This document shows positions 1,957-15,279 of a stretch of DNA of 64,000 bases, piece by piece. This stretch comes from Escherichia phage ECO340P2: sequence record OP172792; one strand, given 5' to 3'. The stretch's first letter is position 1, and each line of letters opens with the position of its first letter. The position numbers were made by a program, and so were the translations under genes. The notes beneath the pieces are model-generated. The model was given only the letters and a program-made list of their open reading frames with translations, ran no database searches and had not been told where the DNA came from.

Positions 1957-2190
1957 CTATTTTTTATAAAATTTTTCTGCTGTGATATTCTTCCCAGTAG
2001 GCTTAACCACTTGCAAGATCTTATCATGTGCCGAACGTCCAAAAGAGTAAGATCCGTACACGGTAAACCAATAATCCCCGTTCGGTTGAACGGTTACGGC
2101 GGCGTACGGTGTACCTCTTTCATTATCCCCGATAAAGTGAGAAACATTACCGTTAACATTTGGTTTAGTGCTTTTAATTTGTTCGATCAT
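1957..2190 (-). CDS. hypothetical early protein
   Basis: ORF with TAGGAGT RBS. Confidence 0.55.
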   Translation of the reverse strand: MIEQIKSTKPNVNGNVSHFIGDNERGTPYAAVTVQPNGDYWFTVYGSYSFGRSAHDKILQVVKPTGKNITAEKFYKK

Positions 2191-2579: not shown

Positions 2580-2864
2580 TTAGCGGCTTATGTAGGCTTT
2601 ACCGTTTACGGTCATCGGTATGGCTTCAAGGTCGGGATCTTCTTTAAGGTCGCGTGCAAGCTCACCGCACCGGATACCCTCGAAGCCGTGATATTCTGTC
2701 TCGCCATCCTTGAAAGTTTTAGCGGCAAGGCATAGGCGGTAATTAACGCCGATCCGGTTTACTGCGTTAATGTCGGTTAGTGTGATAGATTCCGGCAACT
2801 CTTTAGCCACTACAGGCGCGTTAATACCAACAACCAGGGCAACTACTGCGATCATCTTTTTCAT
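2580..2864 (-). CDS. small secreted protein (signal peptide)
   Basis: N-terminal MKKMIAVVALVVGINAPVVA; RBS GGAAGAGGA. Confidence 0.55.
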   Translation of the reverse strand: MKKMIAVVALVVGINAPVVAKELPESITLTDINAVNRIGVNYRLCLAAKTFKDGETEYHGFEGIRCGELARDLKEDPDLEAIPMTVNGKAYISR

Positions 2865-2896
2865 GCTGTCTATCCTCTTCCTATTGCGTTTAATGG

Positions 2897-2910
2897 GGGC
2901 GTTACCGCCC
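2897..2910 (-). promoter_or_regulatory. leader hairpin GGGCGttacCGCCC (promoter overlaps upstream gene end)
   Basis: hairpin of the repeated family immediately upstream of RBS. Confidence 0.45.
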
Positions 2911-2920
2911 TGCTTATGGT

Positions 2921-3157
2921 TTATTGATTGATGTTATGATGAAAGTTATTTTCTTCAATAGCTTTTAAAATAAAAGCCGTGATCGCTTTCGTGTCTACTT
3001 GTTCGAACGTATCAGAATAACACCAATAATAATCATCCCCTACTTTAGGCGGGTAAACTTGGACAAGGAGATCGCCACCTGGTTGATCTATAAGCTCAAC
3101 ATGCAAGCCGGATGATTCGGCGGTTTTAACGGCGTGTAATACTGTTGCTATACTCAT
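2921..3157 (-). CDS. hypothetical early protein
   Basis: ORF with AAAGGGAAAG RBS. Confidence 0.55.
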   Translation of the reverse strand: MSIATVLHAVKTAESSGLHVELIDQPGGDLLVQVYPPKVGDDYYWCYSDTFEQVDTKAITAFILKAIEENNFHHNINQ

Positions 3158-3177
3158 AATCTTTCCCTTTCTGATGT

Positions 3178-3193
3178 GGGGCGTTGCCGCCCC
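3178..3193 (-). promoter_or_regulatory. leader hairpin GGGGCGttgcCGCCCC
   Basis: hairpin of repeated family. Confidence 0.45.
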
Positions 3194-3201
3194 TTTGTTG
3201 A

Positions 3202-3501
3202 TTAGATCGCTGTTTCCAGTAGTTCGGCTAACGTTTTACCGCCTGATAGTTGGTCTAATGTTTGCTCTTCTGGCAAGAAATTAGCGGACACTAAACCTAC
3301 TTGATCCCCTTTGTGCCAATTAGCCTGGCGGGTGATGCCATCCTTCAAAGATTTTATCGCCATAGTGCAACCATCGCCAAATGATTCATTTTTATGATCC
3401 ATCACTTCATAAGCGCCCAGCTTGCTACTGTTAGGTACCATTAACATAAATACATCACCAACAATCAGTTTTTCTACGGTAATAATAGCGATAGTTTCCA
3501 T
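3202..3501 (-). CDS. hypothetical early protein
   Basis: ORF with GAGGAAAG RBS. Confidence 0.55.
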   Translation of the reverse strand: METIAIITVEKLIVGDVFMLMVPNSSKLGAYEVMDHKNESFGDGCTMAIKSLKDGITRQANWHKGDQVGLVSANFLPEEQTLDQLSGGKTLAELLETAI

Positions 3502-9566: not shown

Positions 9567-9627
9567 TTTTTGTTTTGGCGGGGAAGTATTCCGCCGCCCT
9601 ATGTGATACATCTTATCAGATTAAAAA
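9567..9627 (-). promoter_or_regulatory. early promoter (TTGACA-N16-TAAGAT) + leader hairpin
   Basis: read on minus strand. Confidence 0.6.
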
Positions 9628-10141: not shown

Positions 10142-10695
10142 AGGCTATTTTCAAAGTTTTCTAGCGCGATCCTTTTTTCTTCCTCTGTCGGCTGATAATC
10201 AGGAAAAGCATCAATACACAACAACGGCGGGATCTCTTCGTACTCTTCCTCTTCCGTTGTCTCCTCGTCTTCCTCCTGGGCTATGGCTGCAATTTTGGCT
10301 AATTTTCTTTCAGCTTGAATCAGTTTACCATCAAGTACATTTTTTGCCATGTTGTAAGCGGTCCAGGTGATGCGCTTATTTTCCAGGGCTTCATCAAGCG
10401 CCGCTATCTTGCTGGGATATTCATCAAGGACACGAAAAGCCGGATCAACCTTGTACAAAGGATTATCTTTCGCGCCGTCGCTAGGATCTTCCGCACTGGA
10501 TAAATCAGCGTTACCATTTGCCAGCCAACCAGGGCGCACATGACGCGCTTTTACGTTGCCGTTACTACGTGCTAACCTGTTACCTATTTGCTCACCACTA
10601 TAGCCCGTTGATTCATCGACAAGATGATCGGGAATGATGCGCGGATCATCTGCCTCATGCTTTACCCAAGACTGGATCACATATTCACGCCCCAT
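10138..10695 (-). CDS. hypothetical early protein with acidic stretch
   Basis: ORF; ATG 10695 with AAGGTGG RBS; EEDEETTEEEEYEE run. Confidence 0.55.
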   Translation of the reverse strand: MGREYVIQSWVKHEADDPRIIPDHLVDESTGYSGEQIGNRLARSNGNVKARHVRPGWLANGNADLSSAEDPSDGAKDNPLYKVDPAFRVLDEYPSKIAALDEALENKRITWTAYNMAKNVLDGKLIQAERKLAKIAAIAQEEDEETTEEEEYEEIPPLLCIDAFPDYQPTEEEKRIALENFENSL

Positions 10696-10696
10696 A

Positions 10697-10954
10697 TTAA
10701 CCACCTTTTTTCAACAATTGACATACTTTAAAAAGACTTGCGGAATCCTTGCAAGGGTAGAAAGATGTACGATAGTCACGTACGCCAACCTTGCGGATCT
10801 CGATGTTCTCGCATGTTGTTTGATCAAAGATATTTATTTCATCACGCCCCCTTATATAAACATAGTGAGGATGGATCAAAGCATACTTAGCTAATCTGTA
10901 AAAAGCGTTATCTTTGAACGCGATCACGTGACCTTTTAACTTGATGTAAAACAT
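10697..10954 (-). CDS. hypothetical early protein
   Basis: ORF with TAAGGTGA RBS. Confidence 0.55.
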   Translation of the reverse strand: MFYIKLKGHVIAFKDNAFYRLAKYALIHPHYVYIRGRDEINIFDQTTCENIEIRKVGVRDYRTSFYPCKDSASLFKVCQLLKKGG

Positions 10955-10978
10955 TTTGTCACCTTACAAATAGCGGGA

Positions 10979-11034
10979 ACTATTCCCGCCTTATGCAACA
11001 TATTAGTAAATTATTCGCTAATGTCAAGCCTTAA
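10979..11034 (-). promoter_or_regulatory. early promoter + leader hairpin GCGGGAActaTTCCCGC
   Basis: TGTCAA 11029-11034. Confidence 0.55.
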
Positions 11035-11303
11035 AGCAAAAATGCTACATCTTGCGCTTTTAGTGTAGTGTCAACCATTTTCGGGCTTTTATAATCAACA
11101 AACCGCGCGGTTTTTTCAATAGCGAAACCTAAATAATCTTGCTTGTTGAAATTACATTCTTTCTTAAATGTTTCCCGCGCCACGGCGATCGCTGCGTCCA
11201 GGGATAAACGACCATCAATATTAATATTAGCGAAAGATCCGCCACCGCTCATAGGTTTACCAGTGGTGCCAGTTACAATCATTGTTGCGCTATATGATGC
11301 CAT
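11031..11303 (-). CDS. hypothetical early protein
   Basis: ORF with AGAAGAGAGAAAAA RBS. Confidence 0.55.
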   Translation of the reverse strand: MASYSATMIVTGTTGKPMSGGGSFANINIDGRLSLDAAIAVARETFKKECNFNKQDYLGFAIEKTARFVDYKSPKMVDTTLKAQDVAFLL

Positions 11304-11326
11304 GATTTTTCTCTCTTCTGTTAGGC

Positions 11327-11382
11327 GGGGCGCTTGTCGCCCCTATGTGATACATCTTATCAGGTTGTTGCCTGTTGTCAAT
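11327..11382 (-). promoter_or_regulatory. early promoter + leader hairpin GGGGCGcttgtCGCCCC
   Basis: TGTCAA 11377-11382. Confidence 0.55.
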
Positions 11383-11387
11383 ACTTT

Positions 11388-11585
11388 TTATTCAAGCCCT
11401 ACGATATGCAAAACACGGCGATCAGCAATAGCGTGCTGGTCTTCTGTTATAACGCACATTTCTACCAGTGAATCAAGAAAGGAAAGCACAGTAATATATT
11501 CGTCATCGGGTACACTCATTTCATTAGTACCGTTTACCATTACGTTGATTTGTCCTGCTTTCGCTACAATGTGCAATGTTGCCAT
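11388..11585 (-). CDS. hypothetical small early protein
   Basis: ORF with GGAG RBS. Confidence 0.5.
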   Translation of the reverse strand: MATLHIVAKAGQINVMVNGTNEMSVPDDEYITVLSFLDSLVEMCVITEDQHAIADRRVLHIVGLE

Positions 11586-11780
11586 GATCTTAACTCCAGG
11601 TGATAAATGATGTTTTTGTTTGTTGACGGTGGATTATGGAGATCCTCACCTTTGCCCGTCCTACATTGCACCCTCCTGTTGTTTATTGTCGTTGTGCCTC
11701 GCCCCCCTCGACAAGATGAATACTACGCTACCCCCTGGCGAACGTCAATCACTTTTCAATCTTTTTCATTTCTTTTTTGC

Positions 11781-11809
11781 TTGCTATCTATAAAGGAAAG
11801 GGCTATTAT
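11781..11809 (+). promoter_or_regulatory. sigma70-like promoter TTGCTA-N17-TATTAT
   Basis: hexamers read directly. Confidence 0.45.
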
Positions 11810-11856
11810 CTTTCTACCGCGCCAACCAGGGCGCACAACAAAGAAAGGGCGACACC

Positions 11857-12120
11857 ATGACTACTACATTACATCTTATGCACTCGTTAGGCTGGCAAGG
11901 CGGCACGGTGCACCAAGTAGCAAGCGCAACGGGCTTAAAGGTTGAAACCGTGCTTACCCTGGGCGATCATAAGGTGGAAGAGATAGACCATTTTGATCCG
12001 TTTGCTGATGGTTATTTGTGGGCGCTCAGTGGCGGCGGGGAAAGCAAGATCCCGCCAGGGGCGCGGGGCGATATGTATTTTTGGTTAGGTGTCCTCTCCT
12101 GGCAAGAAAACAAAAAATAA
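11857..12120 (+). CDS. hypothetical protein in GC-rich island (possible moron)
   Basis: 87-aa ORF with AAAGGG RBS; local GC clearly above flanking DNA. Confidence 0.35.
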   Translation: MTTTLHLMHSLGWQGGTVHQVASATGLKVETVLTLGDHKVEEIDHFDPFADGYLWALSGGGESKIPPGARGDMYFWLGVLSWQENKK

Positions 12121-12122
12121 TC

Positions 12123-12151
12123 TTGACAAGCCCAGGGATCGGGCTTATACT
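12123..12151 (+). promoter_or_regulatory. sigma70-like promoter TTGACA-N17-TATACT
   Basis: near-consensus hexamers; no credible ORF downstream. Confidence 0.55.
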
Positions 12152-12378
12152 GCTTTACATACAGAAGAGGAAGCGCCACCCCACGGCGTAAAGGCGGGGC
12201 TAACATACCAGGGCGCTGGTTGGAAGGTTGATCGCCGGGAGGCTGGACGCTATACATTTGTAAAGAAATGTAAAGACTAAAATAATTGCTTGCTTTCCAG
12301 GGTAGATCTGTTATTCTTATTACATGGCGAGGGGACACGGGAGCGCGAGACAAACACCACTCCTGCGCGTCATTCCCT

Positions 12379-12541
12379 AAATGAGAATGATTATCATTTA
12401 CCTTCTTAAATAAGAATCAATCTCATTTGAGTAGTTGAATGAGAATCATTCCTATTCGCAAAGTGAGAATAAGTCTCATTTACAACATTAAATGCGAATC
12501 AATCTCATTTGCATTTACATATGAGAATTGTTCTCATTCTC
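12379..12541. repeat. six palindromic iteron/operator-like sites (approx. AAATGAGAAT-N3-5-TCTCATTT)
   Basis: sites at about 12379, 12409, 12437, 12460, 12488, 12519; the last (ATGAGAAttgTTCTCAT) is a perfect palindrome. Confidence 0.6.
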
Positions 12542-12560
12542 ACCTGCATAAAAATTTTTG

Positions 12561-12600
12561 TAAACTTTAAATTTTGCTTTTGTACTTTCATTTTTGTAAA
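12561..12600. repeat. AT-rich 40-bp direct repeat, copy 1
   Basis: about 35/40 identity with 12700-12739. Confidence 0.55.
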
Positions 12601-12699
12601 AGCAAAAAAACTTTAAATACTGTGGGCGCGCAAAATTTTTAAAATTTTCCTTGACTTTTAAGTCTTATTCTTGTATGTAACATTTTAAGATAATTTTCC

Positions 12700-12739
12700 T
12701 AAACTTTAAATTTTGGTTTTCAACTTTCACTTTTGTAAA
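12700..12739. repeat. AT-rich 40-bp direct repeat, copy 2
   Basis: about 35/40 identity with 12561-12600. Confidence 0.55.
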
Positions 12740-12888
12740 TTCTTAAAAAGTTTAAATAATTTGAGGAATTTTTGAGATAACAGATAGTGAGAATTTGAGA
12801 TAACCTTTAATCTTGTTGGTAAACCTTCAGGAACCCATCTAGATCAAATCCTAGCGATGCAAACTGAAAAGATAAGTGTTCGTATAGG

Positions 12889-12933
12889 ACAAAATAATAG
12901 GCTCTCTACAGTGCTGTAGGAGCCTTATTTCTG
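12889..12933. terminator. bidirectional intrinsic terminator (AGGCTCtCTACAG-tg-CTGTAGGAGCCT flanked by T-runs)
   Basis: 12-bp stem with T-rich tracts on both strands; downstream of the leftward operon ending at 12990. Confidence 0.6.
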
Positions 12934-12989
12934 TGCTACAAAGTGACACCTTTGTTTTAAAAATGAAAAAAGTTAAAATATCACAAATA

Positions 12990-13523
12990 TCATCTTTGCG
13001 GTATTTTGTCTGGGAAAAGTATTTCTATCAGCTTGTTATGATATTTACCTAAAAGATTCTGCCCTTTCCAGGTGGCAGGGTTTAGCACCCCTGGTTCATA
13101 CATCCCCATTCCAATTCCGTATACCTTATCGTAAGGACTTGCTTCAACAAATGTTTTGTATTGATATAGACGTAAATCGGCATACAAGTCTGGATTCTGT
13201 ACATACTTCAAGCATAAGCCTCGCATTACAATACGCTCACGATTCTCTTCCCATACTTTGTTATCGAAGCCAGCTACTGCCCTACCCATACGTTTGTAAT
13301 AAGCTTGTATCTTCTCATCTTCTCGTTTTAAACTATGAGTCAGAATAGCCTGTGCAGTGCTGTGGTCATTAAAAAGCAAAGCTTTACGCCACATCATATA
13401 TTGTTCTACACAGTTAAATGTTTCATTGTATCCTAGCTCCGTCTCTGTAAATGGTGCAAGATACCAATTACTAAACACATCTTTATGTGAAAAGAAGAAT
13501 ACATATTCATCAGTTATTCTCAT
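12990..13523 (-). CDS. NADAR (YbiA-like, DUF1768) domain protein; putative ADP-ribosyl/N-glycoside hydrolase
   Basis: recalled YbiA-family pattern: FFFS..FSNWY..PF, EQYMMWRKALLF, YYKRMGRAV, C-terminal LGKYHNKL; AGGAGG RBS. Confidence 0.7.
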   Translation of the reverse strand: MRITDEYVFFFSHKDVFSNWYLAPFTETELGYNETFNCVEQYMMWRKALLFNDHSTAQAILTHSLKREDEKIQAYYKRMGRAVAGFDNKVWEENRERIVMRGLCLKYVQNPDLYADLRLYQYKTFVEASPYDKVYGIGMGMYEPGVLNPATWKGQNLLGKYHNKLIEILFPDKIPQR

Positions 13524-13711: not shown

Positions 13712-14077
13712 TTAGTCCATCCACCAGTAGCCGTAAACCGCGTCTGCGTCGATGAGTTTGTGTTTGTTGTTCCGCATGTAGTCTAAGATAAGTAGACGTT
13801 TATTGTATCTGGAGAGATTATGACCCTCTTTTCCGCCATAGTCAAAATATTTTGCAAGATCTTTACATTCAAACAAAATTAGTTCAGGAGTTTCCTCACA
13901 CTGGTCTGTCTGGTACACTTGACGAATGATCATGTATACATCATCGTCTTCCGCTAAATGCTCTACTGGTCCACATCCAGCAGGAACAAATTCATAATCC
14001 CATCGAATCAGATGTGTCTCTACTGCTTCAAAGAAGTCCATTCTTTCGTTGCGCATAATTTGAACGTCAACTAACAT
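13712..14077 (-). CDS. hypothetical protein
   Basis: ORF in operon. Confidence 0.5.
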   Translation of the reverse strand: MLVDVQIMRNERMDFFEAVETHLIRWDYEFVPAGCGPVEHLAEDDDVYMIIRQVYQTDQCEETPELILFECKDLAKYFDYGGKEGHNLSRYNKRLLILDYMRNNKHKLIDADAVYGYWWMD

Positions 14078-15279
14078 GTTTCCTCCTGTAATGTTCCACC
14101 ATAAAGTTTATAAATATTTTGTATTGATGCCATGCAAGATAACTCCACTGTCTCTGTGTAGCCATCTGGCATAGAATATTTGCTCACTGCTTCCGTGTGA
14201 AGGACACGCTTACAACGCTTTTCTGCATCTTTGCATTGCTTCACAGTAGGGAAGTGCCACACTTGGCTCTGTTTCATAGTAAACACATTACGACTATTTT
14301 GTTCTTTGATACGGCGATTACTATTATTAGCAATACCAAACTTCAGTGCACAGATAATATCTTGCTCATCGTAAATATAATTAATGTAGGCTTGTTGTTG
14401 ATTCATACCTGCACAACCAGGGCAACCACACCCCTTATTTAACCAATTGTTAGCACTACACACATGTTTCCCATGATCCTTGCAACCATATTCAAAATCC
14501 CCAAGTATAGAAGCTTTCCCGATCCACCCCAACCACACGTACCCTCTACGTTCTACGTCACTTTTTGCTCTAAATGTCACCTCTTCTTCAGAATATTTGT
14601 AACTGGCAGAACAACGACAAGGGCGCATACCCTGTTTTAATGAACTACCTCTACCGATAAAATATCCCGTTCCTACCCCAGCTTTGGAAAACTCATCTAT
14701 AGCACAGATAGGGCAAAATACACTCCAAAGTATTTCGCTCCTCCCAGCTTTTTCCCCTGTATTAGTGAAGGTAGTGCCTTCGGGAAACACACCCGTACTC
14801 ATGAAATCTTGTATGTGCTGATCGTCTGAAAGCTTATTGTGTTTACCTATACCCTCTAAACGACAAACTGGACAACCTTGTTTATTATTCTTAAAGTTGT
14901 CTATGGTAGATGTGTTAAACTCGTGACCCCTATCACAACGTAAGATTACTCGTGTCTTTTTAGCTTTCAGCCATTCTCCGTAGATACCCAAGAAGCGCCA
15001 ACCTCTTTTTAACGCTTCTTCTTCACACTCTTTCTCTTGGTCCTCTCTGCTCTTCGTTCTCTTCTCCCTTTTTGTTAATTCACCACAAGAAGGGCAAGAC
15101 TTCCCACTTTTAAAGTTAGATATTTTACAAGTATCCCATACACCGTGCACAGGACATTCTATCAGGAGTTTAGTCTCACACCCTTTCCATTCTTTATGGC
15201 CTAAAATTTTATATCCTTTAGAGAGAGCTATGATCTCGCATTCTGCTTTATATTCTTCCCAACTTTTAGCTTTACTCAT
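14071..15279 (-). CDS. Cys-rich protein with three tandem zinc-ribbon-like repeats
   Basis: three repeats of C-x-x-HG-x-[WF]...NF...G-x-x-CP-x-C (CPVHGVW..CPSCG; CDRGHEF..CPVCR; CKDHGKH..CPGC). Confidence 0.55.
   Translation of the reverse strand: MSKAKSWEEYKAECEIIALSKGYKILGHKEWKGCETKLLIECPVHGVWDTCKISNFKSGKSCPSCGELTKREKRTKSREDQEKECEEEALKRGWRFLGIYGEWLKAKKTRVILRCDRGHEFNTSTIDNFKNNKQGCPVCRLEGIGKHNKLSDDQHIQDFMSTGVFPEGTTFTNTGEKAGRSEILWSVFCPICAIDEFSKAGVGTGYFIGRGSSLKQGMRPCRCSASYKYSEEEVTFRAKSDVERRGYVWLGWIGKASILGDFEYGCKDHGKHVCSANNWLNKGCGCPGCAGMNQQQAYINYIYDEQDIICALKFGIANNSNRRIKEQNSRNVFTMKQSQVWHFPTVKQCKDAEKRCKRVLHTEAVSKYSMPDGYTETVELSCMASIQNIYKLYGGTLQEETC

Follow-up and report, generated by a model that had tools for sequence, protein, structure and literature searches.

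The region described here lies at about 11.6–13.0 kb in a 64,000-nucleotide (nt) stretch of DNA from Escherichia phage ECO340P2 (record OP172792), termed the window throughout, and is centred on a structured non-coding RNA, RNA A, that is predicted to be transcribed from a near-consensus sigma70 promoter. When the 1.6 kb around the locus was used as the query, 146 phage records matched at 85–95% identity and 0 above 95%, all of them ~145–152-kb myoviruses of the phAPEC8/phi92 group (Stephanstirmvirinae). By these matches, the window is from a phAPEC8/phi92-like myovirus. The flanking genes run leftward on both sides in every annotated relative, and the equivalent of window 11.6–13.0 kb is a gap. 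An initial annotation, made from the letters of the window, had described this place as an island rich in guanine plus cytosine (GC), with two rightward promoters, a moron-like open reading frame (ORF) and a possible structured transcript. The island is the left, promoter-proximal half of a gene-poor control region of ~1.3 kb (about 11.75–12.93 kb), which splits the leftward early-gene train in phAPEC8/phi92-like and rV5/PVP-SE1-like phages. The features assigned to the region are as follows.

11720..11748, minus strand: leftward sigma70-like promoter, TTGACG-N17-TAGTAT, from a consensus scan only
11781..11809, plus strand: P1, rightward promoter of the small-gene cassette, TTGCTA-N17-TATTAT, 9/12 consensus match
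11857..12120, plus strand: gene for an 87-amino-acid (aa) protein of PHROG 19316 (no assigned function), from the ORF list, homologues and codon bias
12123..12151, plus strand: P2, near-consensus sigma70 promoter of RNA A, TTGACA-N17-TATACT, 11/12
12129..12145, plus strand: GC-rich hairpin AGCCC-AGGGATC-GGGCT in the P2 spacer, then U-rich sequence
about 12158..12250, plus strand: RNA A (block A), conserved structured non-coding RNA of ~95 nt, RNA ends inferred
12174–12177 with 12185–12188, plus strand: H1, 4-bp stem CGCC:GGCG
12179–12182 with 12196–12199, plus strand: pseudoknot of loop CCCC with GGGG 7 nt downstream
12204–12222, plus strand: H2 hairpin, with covariation at base and apex
12224–12238, plus strand: invariant, apparently single-stranded motif AAGGTTGATCGCCGG
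12259..12276, plus strand: direct repeat TGTAAAGA-N2-TGTAAAGA, just upstream of the P3 -35 hexamer, in nearly all copies
12290..12317, plus strand: P3, third rightward promoter, TTGCTT-N16-TATTCT
12322..12376, plus strand: block B, …GAGACAAACACC…CTGCGCG TCATTC, downstream of P3, conserved across both subfamilies
12381..12537: array of six Fur-type palindromes, consensus ATGAGAATnATTCTCAT, at 12381, 12410, 12439, 12463, 12492 and 12521, spacing 24–29 bp
12551..12763: AT-rich iteron-like repeats, core AAAAA[C/G]TTTAAATA, as two 72-nt direct repeats (12553–12624, 12692–12763) and four 21-nt units
12900..12924: strong hairpin GGCTCTCTACAG-TG-CTGTAGGAGCC with A- and T-runs at its flanks, conserved within the genus

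To trace the conservation of block A, a sensitive DNA search was performed with positions 11600–12360 as the query, and 230 records were returned. The distant records, comprising PVP-SE1, 4MG and phages of Cronobacter, Pectobacterium, Enterobacter, Klebsiella, Serratia and Raoultella, all Vequintavirinae, aligned only at query positions 555–678 (window 12154–12277), just 3′ of P2, with 75–84% identity. The initial annotation had left its proposal to stand or fall with transcripts from these promoters and conservation of the segment in related phages; block A is kept across two subfamilies. Copies were collected from 16 annotated loci, after which IMG/VR and a metagenome collection were scanned with conserved cores and with a profile built from verified copies. 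The profile yielded about 45 copies, 35 of them distinct, and 8 more were added later. P2 scored 9–12/12 in 33 of 33 distinct copies, with a spacer of 17–18 nt and with the TTG of the -35 hexamer and the A2 and T6 of the -10 hexamer essentially invariant. Both rightward sigma70-like promoters of the initial annotation, P2 (11/12) and P1 (9/12), were present in the window and conserved in relatives. No match to 12120–12380 was found in 5,426 complete E. coli genomes, and since nothing similar was present there, host mimicry or a prophage origin of this segment was dropped.

The window contains open frames of 63 aa (plus strand) and 113 aa (minus strand) after P2, coding sequences (CDSs) have been annotated there in phAPEC8 and ZCKP1, and a ‘tRNA-Ile’ label is found in OY978796. 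It is nevertheless extremely improbable that the stretch is protein-coding, whether as the minus-strand phAPEC8 gp257 or as the 63-aa plus-strand ORF, or that it is a tRNA-like gene as labelled in K45PH128C2. Close relatives differ by 1 and 2 nt in the H1 loop and in H2 (CCACCCCAC versus CCACCCCCAC; hairpin lengths 14–20 nt), and such indels break every frame on either strand; block A is therefore taken to be non-coding and gp257 not to be a gene. The statement that no credible ORF follows the second promoter thus applied to the 63-aa and the 113-aa frames alike. In addition, the annotators were at odds over strand and position, and no start codon lies past the transcription start. ARAGORN found 0 tRNA or tmRNA genes in the window and 18 related loci (19 sources, the OY978796 record included). 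On the indel pattern and the negative ARAGORN result, the coding and tRNA readings of block A were excluded. In OY978796.1 itself (L207, 1616–1769), features for tRNA-Ile, tRNA-Met and tRNA-Lys overlie the block A/B module, where ARAGORN places no tRNA; the annotation coordinates of this record appear displaced.

A covariance-model search, which the initial annotation had named as a check, gave no described RNA family. Rfam 15 was scanned at permissive thresholds (E ≤ 10) over 10500–13500, and more laxly over 12100–12400, without a plausible match in 12100–12380; the best matches were fragments of mir-70 and PCA3 with E = 4–7, far below the gathering scores.

The fold of RNA A was then read from the aligned copies. 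In the explicit model, 87.5% of cells were paired, compared to 22–44% with the partners slid. For H2, at least 12 different sequences were found, with stems of 2–7 bp and loops including GAAA. Double (compensatory) changes were seen in 4 of its 6 pairs, and its covariation score was reached by 0 of 500 shuffles. RNAalifold independently recovered H2, with pair 55:77 as AU 16/GC 10 and pair 58:75 as CG 22/GC 4/GU 1; pair 60:73 also covaried. The ‘hairpin-forming sequence’ placed after the second promoter by the initial annotation is hence borne out by covariation for one hairpin, H2. The invariant motif beyond it is a 15-mer of the form AAGGU-K-R-AUCGCCGG, which in RNA reads AAGGUKRAUCGCCGG.

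The pseudoknot partners change jointly, as CCCC:GGGG, CUCC:GGGG, CCAA:UUGG and CCAG:CUGG, with pair 32:47 going from CG to AU in 5 rows; as an exception, L200 breaks the third pair. Because these changes probably represent only one or two events, the pseudoknot was rated as moderately supported. With that degree of support, RNA A would form an H-type pseudoknot with an A-rich third loop. RNAalifold also offered an alternative long-range stem, CGGCG:CGCCG, one pair of which is broken without compensation in 05F01; this alternative is beyond the reach of covariation because both strands are invariant. The single-sequence fold of the window RNA was only modestly better than that of shuffles (z = -2.5). 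The 3′ hairpin of its minimum-free-energy fold (ACAUUU…AAAUGU) was rejected, as it is not conserved; it corresponds to a direct repeat in relatives and was reinterpreted as the upstream part of P3. Judged by comparison of its copies, RNA A is a structured non-coding RNA. What had been put forward as a possible structured non-coding transcript is upheld by conservation confined to the stretch after P2, by covariation, by frame-breaking indels and by an essentially invariant promoter.

In Raoultella phage Ro1 (L010, 2472–3475), block A was found to be interrupted after H2 by a plus-strand ORF (2622–3215), a match to which is annotated as an HNH endonuclease in a sister record; H59 (K23PH08C2) was also hit. 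The insert is flanked by a truncated copy of block A and by a second, complete copy with its own promoter. The complete copy is a mosaic: its 5′ half follows the divergent lineage (‘ACCAAC/TTGG’ type), and the 3′ half is local in type. The pattern looks like invasion by a homing endonuclease with co-conversion of the flanks. Homing endonucleases typically invade indispensable sequences. Near the control region of the window itself, a 402-aa ORF (14071–15279, minus strand) has several CxxC pairs and a C-terminal region that by eye is GIY-YIG/T5orf172-type nuclease-like, and it may be a homing-endonuclease-like gene.

Downstream of block A, the direct repeat at 12259–12276 resembles an A/T-rich UP element or activator site. 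A similar A/T-rich stretch also precedes a second P3-like promoter at 2444. The coordinates given for P3 are those homologous to the relatives, the top pick of the promoter scan in the window being an adjacent weaker hexamer pair; in 33 copies the TTG and TAT..T of P3 were kept, with scores of 7–10/12. For block B no RNA structure was predicted by RNAalifold, and it folded no better than shuffled sequence. A hand-drawn outer stem of block B was dropped, as it was matched by 223 of 500 shuffles. A weak second ‘P3 and block B’ unit was detected at window 2444–2342 on the minus strand (nhmmer E = 3e-4 over the window). It has no ORF of its own and occupies a gap of 250 nt between genes of the leftward early train; next come a further promoter (TTGACA-N17-TATCAT) with a leader hairpin and then the gene 2190..1957. 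Inverted partial copies of block B were also present 7–8 kb from the main one in some Vequintavirinae, namely BIS47, KNP2, pEp_SNUABM_01 and L054.

The palindromes that follow block B were compared with Fur boxes. In the window, 6 of the 8 matches to ATGAGAATnATTCTCAT lie at 12381–12537, and 0 of 100 shuffles reached 8 matches. The first palindrome, TGAGAATGATTATCA, agrees with the Fur 7-1-7 core at 13/14 positions; scored as a 19-mer Fur site it reaches 16/19, the highest value in the 64 kb, and all six match the relaxed core TGAnAATnATTnTCA at 10–12/12. An idealised palindrome, AATGAGAATnATTCTCATT, was sought in one genome per bacterial species, and the first gene on each side of at least 120 loci was translated and scanned against Pfam. 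Among the matches listed, the 139 neighbouring genes included TonB-receptor Plug domains (11), ferric-type binding proteins (9), Fur (8), extracytoplasmic function (ECF) sigma factors (7), ZnuA/SitA (5), FTR1 (3), FeoA (3) and FeoB (2), with FbpA-type substrate-binding proteins, FecI-like sigma factors and FeoAB among them. Half-sites of the GAGAAT type are present in the Fur boxes of iron-regulated A. baumannii genes (PMC3055841). The palindromes of the array are accordingly described as putative Fur-family operators. A leftward Fur-controlled promoter with the first box as its spacer was considered and dropped, as the A at position 2 of its -10 hexamer is not conserved. Where the early-gene train reaches its other end, positions 60–900 of the window form a second gene-poor stretch, in which the words AATGAT/ATCATT/GATAAT abound and a near-perfect Fur core, TGATAATGGTTATCA, is found at 691–705. 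Further sites at 117 and 631 are weaker, and at about 915–945 there is a strong hairpin terminator.

These sites could mean that the region is mainly an iron/Fur interface. In that case, the multi-copy boxes would titrate host Fur in the manner of Fur titration assay (FURTA) plasmids and derepress iron uptake for a phage need such as iron-dependent ribonucleotide reductases; alternatively, the transcripts would be iron-responsive, with RNA A and block B as the outputs. Such a role would suit six Fur-type palindromes within 157 bp, unique in the window, as well as a first box that in 4MG and L040 takes the perfect form TGATAATGATTATCA and that is kept next to block B in phages of hosts from Escherichia to Erwinia. 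It would also suit an idealised site that, among the matches listed, marks Fur regulons across bacteria. The number of copies, however, varies from six in the window through 2–4 in others to one in PVP-SE1, W70, Av-05 and pEp_SNUABM_01, and a single box would make a poor sponge. In the most divergent lineage (L054, L058, L071) blocks A and B are kept yet the palindrome is absent, and the boxes stand clear of P2 and P3. No report of such sites was found in the literature searched. An interface of this kind as the main function of the region is considered unlikely.

Beyond the palindromes, relatives carry three repeats of 63–75 bp at the same place as the AT-rich repeats of the window. Their sequence is genus-specific (AAAAATTTTTTCG…CGATCGAG in Vequintavirinae, …AAAAACTTTAAATAA in Stephanstirmvirinae); PVP-SE1, PBES02 and phi92 have three each, spaced 63–78 bp. 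The hairpin at 12900–12924 is predicted to be a bidirectional terminator closing the gap, and phAPEC8 has a minus-strand ARNold terminator annotated at the equivalent site. Between the P2 start and this terminator lie about 770 nt with no ORF. Block A, block B with its Fur box, and the iterons always co-occur. In a set of metagenomic contigs (L196, L198, L199, L202 and L204), block A is followed by an extra conserved element (…GGTGTGTTATTAAACGGCGCTCGCCCCGTCG…CATAGGTGACACAC…) and the iterons, and then by P3, block B and the Fur boxes. From this one lineage it follows that the order of the parts is not fixed; all are still in one non-coding region.

The base composition changes sharply along these features. 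GC was 0.511 at 11801–12350, against 0.393 for the whole window, and just 0.1% of 550-nt windows were as rich in GC. When 200-nt windows across the 64 kb were ranked by GC, most of the highest fell within 11801–12260 and all 15 of the lowest within 12381–12880 (minimum 21.5%), so that the highest-GC and the lowest-GC DNA of the whole 64 kb adjoin at this region. The initial annotation had described a GC-rich and G-skewed island of about 750 bp. Its GC-richness was evident, but values of 0.50–0.54 were confined to about 11800–12350 and those at 11600–11800 were ordinary (0.42–0.45), which makes the island about 550 bp long. The GC skew was +0.12 to +0.20 at 11800–12300, with negative neighbours; since 28% of all windows were G-skewed as much or more, this part of the description did not hold as anything exceptional.

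Taken together, the parts suggest a lytic replication origin, or an early control hub, that is entered by transcripts of host RNA polymerase, with the Fur sites as host input. This is the reading that we favour, tentatively and at somewhat short of an even chance. The fit to an origin comes from the Fur-type palindromes, the iteron-like repeats and the AT-richest DNA downstream, from several promoters aimed there, and from the lack of an ORF. P2 and P3 are both directed to the right, and the DNA that is lowest in GC within the 64 kb begins about 60 nt past the P3 start with no conserved ORF between; in every relative examined, the region lies in a gene-less gap of a uniformly minus-strand gene train. 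Under this reading, transcripts begun early in infection by host RNA polymerase at P2 and P3 would run into the segment of Fur boxes, iterons and AT-rich DNA, and this transcription would open or prime the origin, as at T4 oriF/oriG, T7 or ColE1. The fold of RNA A would be needed in cis, for instance to give a primer or an R-loop-competent transcript its shape, or to let polymerase continue along an RNA that is not translated. Host Fur, on binding the palindromes, could gate read-through by iron status, or act as an architectural factor. The ‘R-loop-forming origin transcript’ of the initial annotation is plausible in this light. A more specific version, an origin licensed by the host iron sensor, would have RNA A as the cis primer or activator and the Fur array as an iron-dependent gate on transcription towards the unwinding element, with the array perhaps also draining Fur as the genome amplifies; we regard this version as improbable.

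Several observations weigh against an origin or hub. No DnaA or integration host factor (IHF) consensus (TTWTNCACA, WATCAANNNNTTR) was found in 11500–13100, and no recognisable initiator gene adjoins the region, the fold of the 87-aa protein matching nothing. No switch in GC skew occurs at this position, and the transcript is G-skewed to an unexceptional degree. Block B is without a supported structure, and the P3/B-like unit at 2444–2342 lies in the early-gene train, a placement that would fit a generic early leader no less than part of an origin. The Fur boxes begin about 57 nt past the P3 start (about +55 to +215) and overlap neither P2 nor P3; as they are not over a promoter, classical Fur repression would be inapplicable. 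The array also varies from 1 to 6 copies between phages, and a fourth rightward promoter in the AT-rich DNA (12652–12680) is conserved only within the genus. Finally, we infer the replication role from the anatomy of the region alone.

A structured RNA lies directly after a strong early promoter, and ahead of it are ~750 untranslated nt, predicted protein-binding sites and a strong terminator. This arrangement would be in keeping with RNA A as a cis-acting processive antitermination or anti-Rho element, which, like HK022 put, would modify RNA polymerase at P2 for read-through. RNA A, however, resembles no antiterminator RNA in Rfam in sequence or structure. Moreover, a transcript running past the terminator would be antisense to the leftward genes, with no evident gain from read-through. 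A role of this type is considered very unlikely.

In the main rival reading, RNA A would be a stable small RNA that is abundant early, acts in trans and has no part in replication, and block B would perhaps be another. The RNA would be made right after infection from the near-consensus host promoter, the neighbouring repeats would serve another purpose, and the target would be the ribosome or 16S 3′ end, via Shine–Dalgarno-like AAGGUGG and GAAGAGGAA tracts, or else RNA polymerase or an RNase. P2, near-consensus (11/12) and essentially invariant, is in keeping with this, as is a compact conserved fold carrying an invariant single-stranded 15-mer of the kind typical of a recognition surface. The targeting of block A by a homing endonuclease agrees with it too, and so do the second B-like unit elsewhere in the early region and the separability of A and B in one lineage. 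On the other hand, no conserved terminator follows block A, the predicted 3′ hairpin being a direct repeat in relatives. A search of the 64-kb window for complementary targets gave nothing convincing (only trivial antisense sites), and there was no E. coli similarity. The strict linkage with the Fur boxes and iterons would be left unexplained. Small RNAs acting in trans are therefore rated as a serious, if doubtful, alternative, and the origin or hub entered by host transcripts is retained as the working interpretation.

Upstream of P2, the island also holds a small-gene cassette. The initial annotation had placed an 87-aa ORF at 11857–12120 behind the first promoter. The coordinates proved correct, and the promoter is present and conserved, with equivalents of P1 located 29–50 nt from the ATG in most lineages and scoring up to 11/12 in Kashira, ChuuTotoro and L050. 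The comparison of the ORF with databases that had been proposed gave 25 homologues, which share an invariant N-terminal motif, and a match to PHROG 19316 at 7e-56; no Pfam match was obtained. Compared to phAPEC8, the substitutions by codon position were 3/4/16, a third-position bias. An AlphaFold model of the protein, with a predicted local distance difference test (pLDDT) score of 95, consists of five helices; it had no significant fold match, and no fold or family match to DNA-binding initiators. On these comparisons, the 87-aa ORF is real as a gene and is maintained by purifying selection. Its family occurs in phi92, W70, Kashira, 05F01, phiTE and metagenomic relatives, and so in both Stephanstirmvirinae and Vequintavirinae, and the same slot is filled by an unrelated gene family, DUF7170, in PVP-SE1-type phages. 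The gene is oriented opposite to all its neighbours, and its GC content is atypical.

The hairpin that follows, abutting the -10 hexamer of P2, folds in most of 28 distinct copies. The hairpin covaries, its stem sequences being unrelated between copies, and the loops are often GNRA-like (GCAA, GAAA, GUAA). It is probably the intrinsic terminator of the transcript of the 87-aa ORF. As read from these elements, the gene is a self-contained promoter–gene–terminator cassette, with its hairpin nested in the next promoter. The label ‘moron’ is fitting as far as the conserved promoter, the hairpin terminator, the opposite orientation, the atypical GC and the polymorphic slot are concerned. The recent horizontal acquisition it had implied is not supported; since the same family is found in both subfamilies and is under purifying selection, the cassette is not a recent import.

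The gap has been filled differently by annotators: with a minus-strand CDS (gp257) in phAPEC8, with a plus-strand 88-aa CDS and a ‘repeat_region’ in anhysbys, and with two other CDSs in ZCKP1. At its left edge, positions 11600–11720 are absent from many relatives. The promoter predicted at 11720..11748 (minus strand) would drive the leftward early-gene train beginning with the ORF 11585..11388, and its position is equivalent to that of PHIRE/MEME promoters annotated in phAPEC8. Further into this train, a 15-mer, TGATACATCTTATCA, is found at window 9604–9618 and again at 11348–11362, preceding one leftward early gene after another. The repeated promoter–leader unit to which it belongs, a minus-strand TTGACA-N16-TAAGAT followed by GTATCACATAG, agrees with the MEME/PHIRE promoters annotated in phAPEC8. 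In the rV5 genome paper, a ‘non-coding’ box was drawn at the region, and skew analysis failed to locate an origin (PMC3606486). In the literature searched, no paper was found that gave a transcriptome of these phages, mapped their origin, or reported Fur boxes in them, and none that described RNA A.

Each ingredient of the region is of a known kind, be it phage non-coding RNA, iterons, Fur boxes or a moron-like cassette. The RNA motif and the predicted tandem array of Fur operators in a virulent phage appear to be new. The motif, with a defined promoter and fold, is present in at least 231 deposited genomes of two subfamilies, and rV5, PVP-SE1, phi92 and phAPEC8 relatives are widely used candidates for therapy and biocontrol. 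A strong candidate for a lytic origin would be of use in engineering, in copy-number reporters and in annotation. A Fur array in a strictly lytic phage, if true, would tie the development of the phage in an unusual way to the iron status of its host, or would point to a strategy of Fur titration. For the databases, the correction is that phAPEC8 gp257-type ORFs over block A are not genes, and that several records contain spurious CDSs or repeat labels.

Compared with phage morons, the 87-aa gene has its own promoter and terminator, opposite orientation, atypical GC and a slot occupied by unrelated genes across lineages. It differs in belonging to a virulent phage, rather than lying between the late genes of a temperate one, and in being of an old family, widespread in two subfamilies and under purifying selection, rather than a sporadic recent gain. 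RNA A, with its 4-bp stem 1 (CGCC:GGCG), 1-nt loop 1, 3–4-bp stem 2 (CCCC:GGGG) and A-rich 6–7-nt loop 3, is similar in geometry to the compact H-type pseudoknots known from luteoviral frameshift signals, the T4 gene 32 operator and the IncI-alpha repZ activator. Unlike these, it is without sequence homology and has only one or two independent covariation events, and because no ORF is associated with it, frameshifting or translational control is inapplicable.

The palindromes share with enterobacterial Fur boxes (7-1-7 TGATAATnATTATCA; 19-bp GATAATGATAATCATTATC) the same 7-1-7 inverted repeat, of which the first copy matches 13/14, and their GAGAAT variant occurs in real Fur regulons. The predicted phage sites differ in that as many as six stand in tandem, and in that they belong to a virulent phage and lie off any recognisable promoter, in non-coding DNA beside repeats. 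With the iteron origins of lambda, P1 and theta plasmids, the region has in common about three regularly spaced, genus-specific direct repeats beside the AT-richest DNA. The phage repeats are far longer than the usual 17–22 bp, and neither a recognisable adjacent initiator gene nor a DnaA/IHF consensus accompanies them. The closest parallels to the proposed origin are well established: at T4 oriF/oriG, the T7 primary origin and ColE1 RNA II, as is predicted for this region, early promoters fire toward an adjacent AT-rich segment and yield a transcript without an ORF, and in ColE1 a specific RNA fold is required for primer formation. What sets the phage region apart is a set of three tandem sigma70-type promoters, a pseudoknotted RNA unlike RNA II, Fur-type sites between the promoters and the repeats, and long iterons of 63–75 bp.

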